From Escherichia coli (GTDB lineage: Bacteria; Pseudomonadota; Gammaproteobacteria; Enterobacterales; Enterobacteriaceae), in assembly GCF_036507355.1 (NCBI RefSeq), contig NZ_AP027877.1: a stretch of DNA of 64,000 nucleotides. The stretch is one strand, 5' to 3'. A program made the position numbers and the translations under genes. The notes below the pieces were generated by a model. It did not search any database. It was not told the origin of the DNA and saw nothing but the letters and a program-made list of their open reading frames with translations. How positions within the stretch are numbered: position 1 is the stretch's first letter; every line of letters begins with the position of its first letter. Shown here piece by piece: positions 24,912 through 27,706 of this stretch.

Positions 24912-25153
24912 GCACTGGCCGCGTGTGGCGCTGGATGCAGACGATTGATCATGTCCGGGCGGAAACCAGACCAGCTAAGATCGCCTGCAATCACTACCGG
25001 CAACTGACGAAAGCCCTGAGCACGCAACGCTTCCGCCGCTTCAGGAACGCGATCGACATTAATCATTTCAAAATCAAAGCCCCGGTTTTCCATCGCCCGT
25101 TTGGTGGCGTGGCACTGAACGCAATCGTTACGAGTGTAAATGGTAATGCGCAT
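24908..25153 (-). CDS. nrdH: Glutaredoxin-like NrdH
   Basis: 81-aa [37 protein letters not shown]... with CVQC redox motif. Confidence 0.95.
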
Positions 25154-25361
25154 GATTCGTATTTCCGTTTAAAATGAAGATACGGCGCGATGATACGCGT
25201 CGGGTTGTCTCTCTGTTGATACAGAGATACTAGATGTAGTTGAAAAAAGATTCAACCACACAAGATATGGGAATTTTAGATTGATTTCGCCACCGGTGAA
25301 TGGCTCAACGGGGAAGGGGATTTTGTGTTTTTTTGCCGGGCGCATACCCGGCAACAGCAAA

Positions 25362-25793
25362 TTACATCCGCATGGAAACGGCCAGACGGTTAAAACAATT
25401 CATCAGCCCGATGGCAAACGTTAAGTCGCTGATTTCTGCTGCGCTGAAATGCTCAAGCAAAGGCTGATAAGCCTCGTCTTCCGCATGGGTTCTGGCAATA
25501 TCGGTCACTGATTCCGCCCATGCCAGCGCCGCTCGCTCGCGTTCATCAAAATGATGGCTTACGCGCCAGCCTGCCAGGGCGTCCAGTTTGTGTTGTGGCA
25601 CACCGGATTTGCGCAATGCTTTGCTGTGCATCTCCAGACAAAATGCGCAGCCGTTGATTTGCGAGACGCGCAAATAAATTAACTCCATCAACGTGGTATC
25701 CAGCGTGCTATTTTCCAGTGCCGTTTTGGCCTGCACCAGTGTGTTATACACTGCCGGGCTAAGTTCGTAGTAAGGCTGACGTAATGTAGTCAT
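25362..25793 (-). CDS. Carboxymuconolactone decarboxylase family (AhpD-like) protein
   Basis: 143-aa ORF with CxxCxxxH signature in SQINGCAFCLEMHS. Confidence 0.75.
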   Translation of the reverse strand: MTTLRQPYYELSPAVYNTLVQAKTALENSTLDTTLMELIYLRVSQINGCAFCLEMHSKALRKSGVPQHKLDALAGWRVSHHFDERERAALAWAESVTDIARTHAEDEAYQPLLEHFSAAEISDLTFAIGLMNCFNRLAVSMRM

Positions 25794-25880
25794 ACAGTTT
25801 CTCCTCTTATTAACGCCCGCAATGTAGCACTATAATGGACTGCTAAAGAGAGCCATAAATTACCTAAAAAAGCAGACCAT

Positions 25881-27215
25881 ATGCCACGTTATCAGGATAT
25901 CGCCCGTCAGTTAAAAACGGCTATTGAGCAAGGAGAACTGAAACCTGGCGCAAGGCTACCCTCGAGCCGTACCTGGTCGCAGGAGCTGGGTGTCTCTCGA
26001 TCCACTGTCGAAAATGCTTATGCTGAGCTGGTGGCGCAGGGATGGCTGGTCAGGCGGGGACAGGCGGGTACCTTTGTCAGTGAGCAGATACATCCGCAAC
26101 AGTCTGCTGTGGATGTCGTGGCTTTTGCTGGTGAAAGTCAGCAGCCGCTGCCTTTTCAGATGGGGCTACCTGCACTTGATCTTTTTCCGCGTGAATTGTG
26201 GGCGCGGGTGATGGGCCGCCGTCTGCGTACCCAGACGCGTTTTGATTTGGCATTAGGCGATGTCTGCGGCGAGGCGGCCTTGCGCGAGGCTATTGTTGAT
26301 TATTTACGCGTTTCACGTGGGATTGATTGTCAGCCAGAGCAGGTCTTTATCACTCACGGTTATGCGGCCTCAATGGCTTTAATTCTGCACGCTCTGGCGC
26401 AACCGGGAGACGGGATGTGGATGGAAGATCCCGGCTTTCCGCTGATTCGCCCGATTGTCACTCGCCACGGTATGGAAATTTTACCTGTGCCGGTTGATGA
26501 CAACGGACTGGATGTCACAAGCGGAATACAAAATTATCCTGATGCGCGTTTTGCCCTGATTACTCCGGCACACCAAAGCCCGCTGGGTGTGGCACTCTCT
26601 TTAGCGCGTAGGTATCAGATACTGGAATGGGCAGAGCGTAGTCAGGCATGGATTATTGAAGATGATTACGACAGTGAGTTTCGCTATCACGGTAAGCCGT
26701 TACCGGCACTAAAAAGTCTCGACGCGCCGCAGCGGGTGATTTATGCCGGAACATTCAGCAAAGCGCTATTTCCTGCATTGCGCTGTGCGTGGCTGGTGGT
26801 GCCGGTGGAGCAGATTTCGCAATTCCGGCAGCAGGCGTCACTGGAACCATGTGCTGTACCCGTACTGTGGCAGAACACACTGGCAGATTTCATCCGTGAG
26901 GGGCATTTCTGGCGGCATCTGAAGAAAATGCGCCAGCATTATGCCCAGCGACGGCAGTGGATTGAGCAGGCACTTACGCAGCAGGGATTTCAGGTTGTGC
27001 CGCAAAAAGGCGGTATCCAGATGGTGATCAAACTAGCAGGTAATGACGTGACATTCGTGCATAAAGCCAATGCTGCTGGTCTTGCCGTACAGGCACTTAG
27101 CGACTGGCGTATCCGCTCAAGCGAGGACGGAGGATTATTGCTCTCGTTTACGAATATCGTTAGCGAAAGTATGGCGCGACAGGTAGCACAGCAATTGCGC
27201 AGTGCTTTAAATTAA
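25881..27215 (+). CDS. MocR/GabR-family transcriptional regulator (GntR wHTH + PLP aminotransferase-like domain)
   Basis: 444-aa ORF; N-terminal RLPSSRTWSQELGVSRSTVENAYAELVAQGWL; C-terminal fold-type I region with GTFSKALFP (candidate PLP lysine). Confidence 0.8.
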   Translation: MPRYQDIARQLKTAIEQGELKPGARLPSSRTWSQELGVSRSTVENAYAELVAQGWLVRRGQAGTFVSEQIHPQQSAVDVVAFAGESQQPLPFQMGLPALDLFPRELWARVMGRRLRTQTRFDLALGDVCGEAALREAIVDYLRVSRGIDCQPEQVFITHGYAASMALILHALAQPGDGMWMEDPGFPLIRPIVTRHGMEILPVPVDDNGLDVTSGIQNYPDARFALITPAHQSPLGVALSLARRYQILEWAERSQAWIIEDDYDSEFRYHGKPLPALKSLDAPQRVIYAGTFSKALFPALRCAWLVVPVEQISQFRQQASLEPCAVPVLWQNTLADFIREGHFWRHLKKMRQHYAQRRQWIEQALTQQGFQVVPQKGGIQMVIKLAGNDVTFVHKANAAGLAVQALSDWRIRSSEDGGLLLSFTNIVSESMARQVAQQLRSALN

Positions 27216-27364
27216 TAACCCCGAAGCCAGGCTTCGGGGTCCTATAAGACTGGTGACCAGGGCAAAATCCCCTGATGCGCTATGTTTTTCAGGCCTGTAG
27301 GCGGACAAGGCGTTGACGCACTGAGTACTTTTCAGAAGTCAGGCTACTGCTTGTCATCGTCTCA

Positions 27365-27706
27365 CTACGATTTACGCATGCTCAACAACGCACCGATAAA
27401 AATACCTACCGCAGCAGCAGTTCCCACGCTACACCAGGGTCTTTCACGAACAAAAGAATCCGCGCAGCCAACGGCATCGCGTGCGGCTTGCTGGACGCGA
27501 GTACGACCATGCATTCGCGCCCTGGTTTCTTTCAGCAATGCCTGAGCTTTACTGCGTGCGGCTTCAGCTTCCCCTTTGGCGTCGCTGCCCCAGGACTTCA
27601 ATACAGATTCGAGGCTGTCAGCTAATTGATTGACATCATTCTGGATATCCTGCACGCCATCATCAACGTCGTTGCGGTTCGGTCGGTTAAACATATGATC
27701 CCCCAT
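27365..27706 (-). CDS. ygaM: ElaB/YqjD/DUF883-family membrane-anchored protein YgaM
   Basis: ORF ...MFNRPNRNDVDDGVQDIQNDVNQLADSLESVLKSW... with C-terminal TM anchor; true start may be the internal MFNRP (27694). Confidence 0.85.
   Translation of the reverse strand: MGDHMFNRPNRNDVDDGVQDIQNDVNQLADSLESVLKSWGSDAKGEAEAARSKAQALLKETRARMHGRTRVQQAARDAVGCADSFVRERPWCSVGTAAAVGIFIGALLSMRKS

Follow-up and report, generated by a model that had tools for sequence, protein, structure and literature searches.

In the nrdH-ygaM interval of Escherichia coli, a MocR-type regulator gene stands back to back with a divergently oriented gene for a CMD/AhpD-like protein. Sequence comparison indicates that this two-gene module has been passed down vertically within Enterobacteriaceae and that E. 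coli K-12 represents a derived, deleted state. Three short boxes in the spacer between the two genes, arranged over a conserved TATAAT and the CMD −35 position, have the layout of a MocR operator and are its candidate. Taken as a whole, an explanation that combines vertical inheritance of the MocR and CMD module, control of CMD through the three boxes, and ongoing loss in E. coli is, in our judgment, reasonably probable.

Gene organization of the nrdH-ygaM region

The window analyzed is a 64,000-nucleotide stretch of E. coli DNA. Between the end of nrdH at 25153 and the start of ygaM at 27365 lie the features listed in Table 1. Both open reading frames have the coordinates and lengths given in a preliminary description of this DNA, and its figure for the gap between them is also right. 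The CMD gene is directly upstream of nrdHIEF and points in the same direction, and the terminator scan found no canonical terminator between them. A stem-loop follows the CMD stop codon; its stem is kept while its loop varies in the B2 allele, E. albertii, and E. whittamii, and it was not called as a terminator in the scan. The hairpin between the convergent regulator and ygaM genes is common to carriers and noncarriers of the pair and forms the right edge of the deletion described below. An additional 123 bp at 27242-27364 was considered as a REP/BIME element and rejected, being single copy in the window and in the 364 genomes carrying it.

The window ORF list contains no integrase or transposase ORFs, and no flanking repeats were found. 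No tRNA gene was detected within ∼10 kb on either side of the pair, and an Rfam search returned nothing at E values up to 1. Among the window ORFs, no ahpC, pca, gabT, or gabD gene adjoins the pair.

Table 1. Features of the CMD/regulator locus (positions in the 64-kb window)
Feature	Position	Strand	Description
Stem-loop GCCGGGCGCATACCCGGC	25335..25352	-	Directly 3' of CMD stop codon; no U-tract on CMD strand
CMD/AhpD-like gene	25362..25793	-	143 aa; E37, C49-x-x-C52, H56
Divergent control region	25794..25880		87 bp, between CMD and regulator start codons
Shine-Dalgarno GAGGAGA of CMD gene	25800..25806	-	Read from sequence; CTCCTC conserved across loci
Overlapping −10 elements	25829..25836		TATAAT, + strand, 25831-25836; TATAGT, - strand, 25834-25829; putative promoter roles
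Box 1 ATGGACTGC	25835..25843	+	Candidate wHTH site; overlaps 3' end of regulator −10, with putative start site just 3'
Box 2 ATGGCTCTC	25848..25856	-	Candidate wHTH site over putative CMD −35 position
Box 3 ATGGTCTGC	25872..25880	-	Abuts ATG of regulator gene
MocR-family regulator gene	25881..27215	+	444 aa; GntR wHTH, aminotransferase-like domain, PLP Lys294
Hairpin	27217..27241		Between convergent regulator and ygaM genes; terminator-like site in scan; also found in K-12

Ancestry of the pair and its loss in E. coli

The gene order nrdHIE-CMD-MocR-ygaM-ygaC-alaE also occurs in E. albertii, Citrobacter, Salmonella, Klebsiella, Raoultella, Buttiauxella, Cedecea, and others, and the pair has the same position and orientation in E. 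whittamii, Yokenella, Pluralibacter, and Shimwellia. In a sample of 80 species loci from Enterobacteriaceae, nearly all have it in the same nrdH-ygaM slot, and CMD is the divergent partner of the regulator in 79 of the 80. Protein identities track the species tree, falling with phylogenetic distance. The GC content of the pair (0.50 to 0.54) is like that of its flanks, and dN/dS values indicate purifying selection on both the regulator (0.05 to 0.11) and CMD (0.03 to 0.19) genes. The shared slot across genera, normal GC content, lack of mobility genes and tRNAs, and purifying selection together argue for ancestral backbone rather than an acquired island.

The preliminary description had regarded the locus as varying among strains, and this is borne out by a survey of 5,426 complete E. 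coli genomes: the pair is intact in 1,276, the regulator is truncated in 111, and ∼4,039 are without the pair. The latter include K-12 MG1655, from which the pair had been said to be absent and in which the ygaM-nrdH gap is indeed only 247 bp, with no gene inside. Compared with carriers, the K-12 spacer runs colinearly through the left flank and directly on into the right flank, and it appears to keep a remnant of the distal half of the post-CMD stem-loop. Since the slot is shared across genera and the K-12 spacer looks like joined carrier flanks, the state of most E. coli genomes is best read as a backbone deletion. A single ∼1.85-kb deletion would have taken both genes from about 74% of complete E. 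coli genomes, K-12 included, and a separate deletion of 582 bp removes the DNA-binding half of the regulator in 2%; in the 111 genomes concerned, CMD is intact and a functional regulator is gone. Two allele lineages retain the pair, the O157-type at about 99% identity and the B2-type at about 92%.

The pair was initially described as a small strain-variable islet. Its variability stands, but its insertion does not, given the same slot across genera, normal GC content, and absence of tRNA; among the hallmarks of a genomic island, only strain variability was found, whereas the pair is neither absent from sister species nor marked by atypical composition or mobility features. Horizontal acquisition, with a strain-specific islet having entered the nrdH-ygaM interval in some lineages of E. 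coli, would fit the presence of the pair in only 1,387 of the 5,426 genomes, and not in K-12, the unusual divergence of the two E. coli regulator alleles (dS of 0.42, versus 0.07 to 0.14 for neighboring genes), and the private 123-bp flank that accompanies the E-type allele. The dS excess, patchy presence, and 123-bp flank do show the locus to have undergone some recombination. An acquired islet is nevertheless difficult to reconcile with the same site and orientation in E. albertii, E. whittamii, Citrobacter, Salmonella, Klebsiella, Raoultella, and others, with identities that drop as phylogenetic distance grows, with a GC content like that of the flanks, with the absence of tRNA, integrase, and flanking repeat, or with a K-12 spacer that resembles joined carrier flanks and holds a hairpin remnant. 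We consider this interpretation largely refuted and its truth very improbable. A gene pair that is absent from K-12 need not be an island, an easy misreading that is corrected here.

MocR-type regulator

Homology shows the regulator to be a MocR-type factor, with a predicted dimeric GntR winged helix fused to a PLP-binding aminotransferase-like sensor domain. The N terminus matches GntR (PF00392; E = 1.3e-17; residues 4 to 66), and the C-terminal part matches Aminotran_1_2 (PF00155; E = 2.6e-27; residues 126 to 395), with a fold-type I aminotransferase-like domain behind a long linker; both matches agree with the family assigned in the preliminary description. Full-length alignments were obtained with Bacillus clausii PdxR (7pq9; E = 3e-65) and with GabR (4n0b; E = 5e-59). 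The wHTH aligns with those of PdxR and GabR, R30 corresponding to PdxR Arg43. The lysine of the GTFSK motif, previously put forward as the PLP-binding residue, is confirmed by alignment: K294 matches GabR K312 and, in B. clausii PdxR, the lysine of the active site, which is Lys309 in the published numbering (PMC10450172). By alignment, D261, S293, R301, and Y263 likewise equal GabR D279, S311, R319, and Y281, and all five PLP residues are kept in 79 to 81 of 81 loci. The regulator thus has the wHTH, aminotransferase-like domain, and PLP-binding quartet of MocR factors and also, judged by conservation, the upstream repeats.

CMD/AhpD-like protein

The partner is shown by homology to belong to the CMD/AhpD-like thiol oxidoreductases and is predicted to be a small, hexamer-type member of the PA0269 kind. 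It matches Pfam CMD (PF02627; E = 4e-21) and the TIGR00778 AhpD core domain (56 bits; cutoff, 27.8) and aligns over its full length with PA0269 (2ijc, 2o4d, and 7xw1; E = 6e-30). These matches support the CMD/AhpD assignment made earlier from the CxxCxxxH signature, and the signature itself, C49-A-F-C52-L-E-M-H56, lines up together with E37 with the proton-relay residues of PA0269. E37, C49, C52, and H56 are invariant in 80/80 orthologous loci. PA0269, the closest solved homologue, is hexameric and shows weak, cysteine-dependent H2O2 reduction in vitro (PMC3141380). Reading across from PA0269 at roughly 45% full-length similarity, we infer that the E. coli protein may be a peroxide-reducing hexamer.

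The locus is without ahpC, and the TIGR00777 "ahpD" score of 31 bits is below the 192-bit cutoff, unlike a canonical AhpC/AhpD system. The protein has a CxxC motif and no pca genes nearby, which separates it from PcaC (gamma-carboxymuconolactone decarboxylase); according to the PA0269 paper, gamma-CMD members are without this motif (PMC3141380).

Divergent control region

A core of ∼55 bp in the spacer is nearly invariant across 73 unique orthologous spacers. The conserved block CACTATAATGG spans the overlapping −10 elements across loci. Inspection of the spacer for MocR-type repeats, suggested by the preliminary description, revealed three conserved ATGG-type boxes at near-invariant spacing. 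The ATGG of box 1 is invariant (81/81 loci). Boxes 1 and 3 form an inverted pair with ≤1 mismatch in 60 of the 81, and in nine loci (eight from Kluyvera and one further Enterobacteriaceae record) box 1 is changed to ATGGTCTTA with a matching change in box 3; a wHTH substitution peculiar to these nine loci was sought, and none was found. The gap between boxes 1 and 2 is 4 nt in all 81 loci, and that between boxes 2 and 3 is 15 nt in 80 of 81, although the sequence between the boxes varies. In the one species that has lost CMD and kept the regulator (L050), boxes 1 and 3 persist at unchanged spacing and box 2 is lost. The composite of box 1, N29, and box 3 has a single occurrence in the 64-kb window, matched in 0/100 shuffles, and the window holds no further operator-like sites.

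Within the single E. coli spacer, the inverted 9-mer pair is no better than chance (reached by 297 of 2,000 shuffles), and support for the boxes therefore comes from their conservation across species. A generic repeat finder (seed 6) reported nothing in the spacer because the boxes differ at their central base. A consensus promoter scan of the spacer called neither promoter because both −35 hexamers are poor. Part of the spacer conservation could instead come from promoter elements.

Proposed mechanism and alternative explanations

We propose the following. (i) The regulator would bind all three boxes of the 87-bp spacer, which are of the ATGG(A/T)CT type. (ii) The inverted boxes 1 and 3, 38 bp apart center to center, would mediate autorepression, since box 1 overlaps the regulator's own −10 element and box 3 abuts its start codon. 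(iii) Box 2, a direct repeat of box 3, sits where the CMD promoter is without a usable −35 hexamer, and its occupancy would therefore switch CMD transcription. (iv) Box usage would shift when the PLP carried by the regulator changes, either in its load or by forming an adduct with a small molecule; such PLP-state-dependent choice is the published logic of PdxR and GabR. (v) The CMD protein may then reduce peroxide or another oxidized or electrophilic substrate via C49 and C52. In this scheme, we infer the transcription start sites, the assignment of activation or repression, and the effector; the predicted starts are near 25843-25845 on the plus strand and near 25822 on the minus strand.

The regulator might instead regulate only itself or act elsewhere, e.g., on nrdHIEF or ygaM, with CMD an unrelated neighbor under its own control. 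Retention of the regulator without CMD in one species and of intact CMD without a functional regulator in 111 E. coli genomes would be expected of genes that are independent, and CMD is upstream of and codirectional with nrdHIEF without a canonical terminator in between. However, pairing and spacer geometry are conserved across genera, box 2 is at the CMD −35 position and decays where CMD is lost, and a second site was not found in the 64-kb window. Moreover, MocR-COG2128 pairs recur in 53 predicted regulons of Proteobacteria and Actinobacteria (PMC5320631). We consider this alternative unlikely, although not outlandish.

A different question is whether the name given to the regulator by RefSeq and UniRef, PdxR, is functionally correct, i.e., whether the biosynthesis or salvage of vitamin B6 is under its control in response to PLP. 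The NCBIfam PdxR model NF052282 scores 417.7 bits (cutoff, 320), B. clausii PdxR is the best solved homologue, PGAP calls many copies pdxR, and PLP alone as an effector stays compatible with our observations. Enterobacteriaceae synthesize PLP by way of PdxA/PdxJ and are not known to carry pdxST as a target for such a regulator. The NF052282 score is just 48 bits over that of the rhizopine MocR model on the same protein (369.5), and the neighbors in nearly all 80 species loci are the CMD gene, nrdH, and ygaM, with CMD as divergent partner in 79 and no pdxS, pdxT, or pdxK between nrdH and ygaM. In a published survey, the corresponding "Spro_3719" group has COG2128 targets and no PLP metabolism genes, unlike the PdxR, PdxW, and PdxQ groups (PMC5320631). 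A true PdxR is therefore improbable, and "PdxR, pyridoxine biosynthesis regulator" is probably an overannotation for this orthologous group.

Within the proposed module, a more specific and rather doubtful possibility is that the module uses PLP to sense an oxidant or an electrophile reactive toward PLP (peroxide, hypohalous acid, or a cyanide- or hydroxylamine-like compound) and turns on a CxxC reductase. CMD transcription may in that case continue into nrdHIEF, an operon induced by oxidative stress, retention in O157-type and B2-type lineages with loss elsewhere would point to a host-associated fitness role, and the deletion would also have remodeled the distal NrdR-like box of nrdHIEF.

Comparison with known systems

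The pair is already annotated, a regulog of its enterobacterial orthologues is already published, and the locus is otherwise ordinary. The computed regulog "Spro_3719 - Enterobacteriales" has COG2128 as sole target and includes Salmonella LT2 STM2803, Citrobacter koseri CKO_04020, a Klebsiella member, and Serratia Spro_3719 (Suvorova and Rodionov 2016, PMC5320631). STM2803 is the Salmonella orthologue of our regulator at the same position, and in Salmonella, Citrobacter, and Klebsiella the pair occupies the nrdH-ygaM slot; the regulog differs in that E. coli is not listed, no function is assigned, and the evidence is computational only. Beyond that study, the present analysis adds the three-box layout and the deletion states seen in E. 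coli. A literature search (MocR with CMD/AhpD; tags STM2803/4, Z3973/4, ECs3534/5, and PA0268) found no functional study of any orthologue. The protein z3974, which by tag order alone (ECs3533 being ygaM) would be the CMD protein, appears only in a study in which a salicylidene acylhydrazide resin retained it together with 15 other proteins and which did not confirm it as a binder. STM2804 has served only as a neutral site for insertions. MocR regulators with a COG2128 AhpD-like target form the most frequent uncharacterized MocR regulon type, with 53 predicted regulons (PMC5320631), and an E. coli/Salmonella member with natural null alleles would be a convenient system for an effector search.

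Pseudomonas aeruginosa PA0269 resembles the CMD protein in its full-length alignment and the same Glu/Cys-x-x-Cys/His relay, and it has Tyr50 where position 51 here is Phe (Tyr in 13/80 orthologues). The MocR regulator PA0268 is predicted to control COG2128 in P. aeruginosa (PMC5320631) but belongs to another orthologous group and another genomic neighborhood than the E. coli pair. Mycobacterium tuberculosis AhpD shares the CMD fold family and the CxxC, His, and Glu proton relay; it is, however, a trimeric partner of AhpC, whereas the CMD protein here is without an adjacent ahpC, has N-terminal active-site helices, and is predicted to be of the hexamer type, as is PA0269.

Among regulators, Bacillus subtilis GabR has the same domain architecture and PLP-binding quartet, represses itself, and also activates its divergent operon (gabTD). 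The E. coli regulator has Leu188 where GabR has its GABA-carboxylate ligand Arg207, scores 267 bits against the 600-bit NCBIfam GabR cutoff, and has no gabT or gabD beside it. The PdxR operator consists of two direct repeats and one inverted repeat, between which the choice is PLP dependent (PMC10450172). Like the present locus, B. clausii pdxR-pdxST is a divergent pair in which a set of two direct repeats plus an inverted one overlaps both promoters, but it differs in its target, a PLP synthase rather than an AhpD-like gene, in its motif sequence, and in the aligned wing residues, PRKGFY in B. clausii PdxR and GQAGTF in the regulator described here.

Gene pair and strain distribution

The preliminary description of a divergent gene pair between nrdH and ygaM was accurate in position and in both family assignments, each ORF being found with its domain matches. 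The first protein (CMD) matches Pfam CMD (E = 4e-21) and scores above the cut-off of the AhpD core-domain model TIGR00778; the second (regulator), across an 87-bp spacer, is of the MocR family, in which a GntR wHTH domain (E = 1e-17) precedes one of aminotransferase class I/II (E = 3e-27).

Features of the nrdH-ygaM region (window coordinates unless a locus is named) and orthologous loci with unusual arrangements
Feature	Position	Strand	Basis, sequence or remark
nrdH (end)	25153
Interval between nrdH and CMD	25154-25361
NrdR-box-like 16-mers	25227-25242; 25258-25273		31 bp apart
Stem-loop 3' of CMD	25335-25352
CMD gene, 143 aa	25362-25793	minus	ORF call; Pfam CMD, TIGR00778
Candidate box 1	25835-25843	plus	ATGGACTGC
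Candidate box 2	25848-25856	minus	ATGGCTCTC
Candidate box 3	25872-25880	minus	ATGGTCTGC; adjoins regulator ATG
MocR regulator gene, 444 aa	25881-27215	plus	ORF call; Pfam GntR wHTH, aminotransferase class I/II
582-bp deletion	~25878-26460; L084 1710-2465 (E. coli EC12)		locus and window coordinates
Private 123-bp segment	27242-27364		window-type allele
ygaM (start)	27365
Locus lacking CMD	L050 4655-5010		'Enterobacter pulveris' DSM 19144
Citrobacter loci without ygaM beside regulator	L011, L013, L015-L022, L078
Kluyvera-type loci without nrdHIE beside CMD	L033, L039, L044, L051, L053, L055, L058, L068, L076

Strain variability had been suspected, and the full pair is present in 1276/5426 complete E. 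coli genomes and a shortened version in 111/5426; in the remainder the match is limited to the first 115 bp upstream of nrdH. K-12 MG1655 lacks the pair, as anticipated, and has a gene-free ygaM-nrdH spacer of 247 bp. Such variability had been read as a small islet, i.e., acquired DNA. However, scanning a single genome of each species gave 80 loci, and mapping by tblastn found the order and orientation nrdE-nrdI-nrdH-CMD/MocR-ygaM-ygaC-alaE to be common to nearly all of the mapped loci (E. albertii, E. whittamii, Citrobacter, Salmonella, Klebsiella, Raoultella, Yokenella, Pseudocitrobacter, Buttiauxella, Cedecea, Pluralibacter, Shimwellia, and others). Protein identity drops with phylogenetic distance, from 90-94% in other Escherichia to 75-79% in Citrobacter/Salmonella and 63-71% beyond, the GC content of the segment equals that of its flanks, and ORF and tRNA scans found no tRNA or mobility genes at the locus. 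Over its whole length, the K-12 spacer aligns with the joined left and right flanks of carriers, and it appears to keep a remnant of the distal half of the hairpin 3' of the CMD stop codon. The shared slot across genera, flank-like GC, and joined flanks largely refute an acquired islet, and the comparisons as a whole identify the pair as ancestral backbone DNA in this family. Most E. coli lack it through a deletion of about 1.85 kb comprising essentially both coding regions; the segment is thus variable, as described, but as a deletion polymorphism of ancestral DNA. Where retained, the genes are under purifying selection (dN/dS: regulator, 0.05-0.11; CMD, 0.03-0.19).

Alleles and unusual loci

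The 111 E. coli genomes with the shortened version, all of the B2-type allele, have the 582-bp deletion. About 195 codons are lost from the beginning of the regulator gene, start codon and wHTH domain included; the operator region is untouched and CMD is intact, which makes these strains natural regulator nulls. Between the two E. coli regulator alleles (25881-27364), dS is 0.42, equal to that between E. coli and E. whittamii and far above values for CMD (0.09), nrdE (0.14), and ygaC (0.065). In all 364 genomes with the window-type allele, O157:H7 and O145 among them, it is accompanied by the single-copy 123-bp segment, which stands in for about 30 bp that B2 strains, K-12, and E. albertii have instead. 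The pattern suggests an old import by recombination.

In Citrobacter loci akin to C. freundii (C. youngae, C. portucalensis, C. werkmanii, C. braakii, and other Citrobacter) ygaM is not beside the regulator, and in Kluyvera-type loci nrdHIE is not beside CMD; in both cases the surroundings of a conserved pair have been rearranged locally as well. A record titled 'Chryseobacterium sp. 18061' (L080) has an nrdHIE-CMD-MocR-ygaM locus typical of enterobacteria, with identities near those of Citrobacter sp. 18056 (L026), and 'Leminorella grimontii' (L008) a Citrobacter-like regulator (78% identical) beside which nrd genes and ygaM were not detected. In each case the assembly may be mislabelled or contaminated.

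Control region and flanks

The spacer had been proposed as a site of MocR-type repeats, and cross-species alignment (73 unique spacers from 81 loci) revealed three candidate boxes at fixed spacing. A repeat finder and promoter scan of the spacer called nothing, and box repeats within a single E. coli spacer had no significance. The boxes, each with an invariant ATGG core, lie in a nearly invariant stretch, TAGCACTATAATGG(A/T)CTG...AGA(G/T)AGCCAT...AAAAA(G/C)CAGACCAT; the gaps are 4 nt in 81/81 loci and 15 nt in 80/81, and the sequence between boxes is free to vary. Box 3 is an inverted counterpart of box 1, with ≤1 mismatch in 60/81 loci, and the two have changed jointly to ATGGTCTTA in nine (eight Kluyvera records and one Enterobacteriaceae bacterium). 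The 64-kb window has a single copy of the composite site.

On the regulator strand, a conserved TATAAT shares its 3' end with box 1, and an overlapping TATAGT on the opposite strand would serve CMD, whose poor -35 position is occupied by box 2. In 'Enterobacter pulveris' (L050), the one sampled species with the regulator but without CMD, box 2 has decayed and boxes 1 and 3 keep the same 28-nt separation. We infer both the start sites and the sign of regulation at this spacer.

Upstream of nrdH, two 16-mers resemble NrdR boxes. Carriers and K-12 share an identical proximal 16-mer; the distal one, at their divergence point, is ACACAAGATATGGGAA in carriers versus ACACAATATATAGCAA in K-12, the K-12 form being closer to the NrdR consensus, so control of nrdHIEF may differ between haplotypes. 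The stem-loop directly 3' of the CMD stop has a conserved stem and a variable loop but lacks a U-tract on the CMD strand. CMD and nrdH are co-directional, and the scan called no canonical terminator in the interval between them, making read-through into nrdHIEF conceivable.

Comparison with known systems

The nearest solved relatives of CMD are P. aeruginosa PA0269 and Agrobacterium Atu0492 (full length, E about 1e-29 to 6e-30). PA0269 is AhpD-like and forms a hexamer; it has a Glu36/Cys48/Tyr50/Cys51/His55 relay and shows weak, N-ethylmaleimide-sensitive H2O2 reduction (PMC3141380). The corresponding CMD residues are E37, C49, F51, C52, and H56, with Phe in place of Tyr50; the four essential ones, which include the predicted CxxCxxxH signature, are invariant (80/80 loci). 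CMD is not a canonical AhpC partner, since ahpC is absent nearby and the TIGR00777 score is far below cut-off, and a PcaC-type decarboxylase is excluded because such proteins lack the CxxC motif that CMD has.

The regulator aligns full-length with the two structurally characterised MocR regulators used, B. clausii PdxR (7pq9, E = 3e-65) and B. subtilis GabR (4n0b, E = 5e-59). The lysine of GTFSK, proposed earlier to bind PLP, is K294 and corresponds to GabR K312 and to the PdxR active-site lysine (Lys309); D261, Y263, S293, and R301 correspond to the PLP-binding set given in the PdxR paper (PMC10450172). These positions are kept in 79-81/81 loci. GabR R207, which holds the GABA carboxylate, is replaced by Leu188, and a GABA-like effector is therefore not expected.

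Near-identical regulator copies are named inconsistently by PGAP/RefSeq ('PLP-dependent aminotransferase family protein' versus 'pdxR: MocR-like pyridoxine biosynthesis transcription factor PdxR'). The protein passes the NCBIfam PdxR model (418 bits; cut-off, 320) and scores 370 bits with the rhizopine MocR model. Enterobacteriaceae synthesize PLP by the PdxA/PdxJ route and are not known to have pdxST; the label "pyridoxine biosynthesis regulator PdxR" is therefore unsupported by context.

Among the groups of a comparative-genomics MocR survey (PMC5320631) is the "Spro_3719 - Enterobacteriales" regulog (Salmonella STM2803, C. koseri CKO_04020, Klebsiella, Enterobacter 638, Pectobacterium, and Serratia) with COG2128 as the predicted target for each member; the Pectobacterium entry has a second regulator with a GNAT-family target. 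Its "PA0268" group has the same kind of target, and COG2128 is targeted in 53 predicted regulons. Unlike the PdxR, PdxW, and PdxQ groups, neither the Spro_3719 nor the PA0268 group has PLP-metabolism genes in its listed regulons. No experimental work on any orthologue of the pair was found in the literature. The module is a member of this known, computationally described class, and the main value of our analysis lies in correcting the islet and PdxR readings and in pointing out natural null alleles. The arrangement read here from sequence, with two direct repeats and an inverted one across a pair of divergent promoters, has been shown for PdxR, where PLP alters the choice of bound motifs (PMC10450172).
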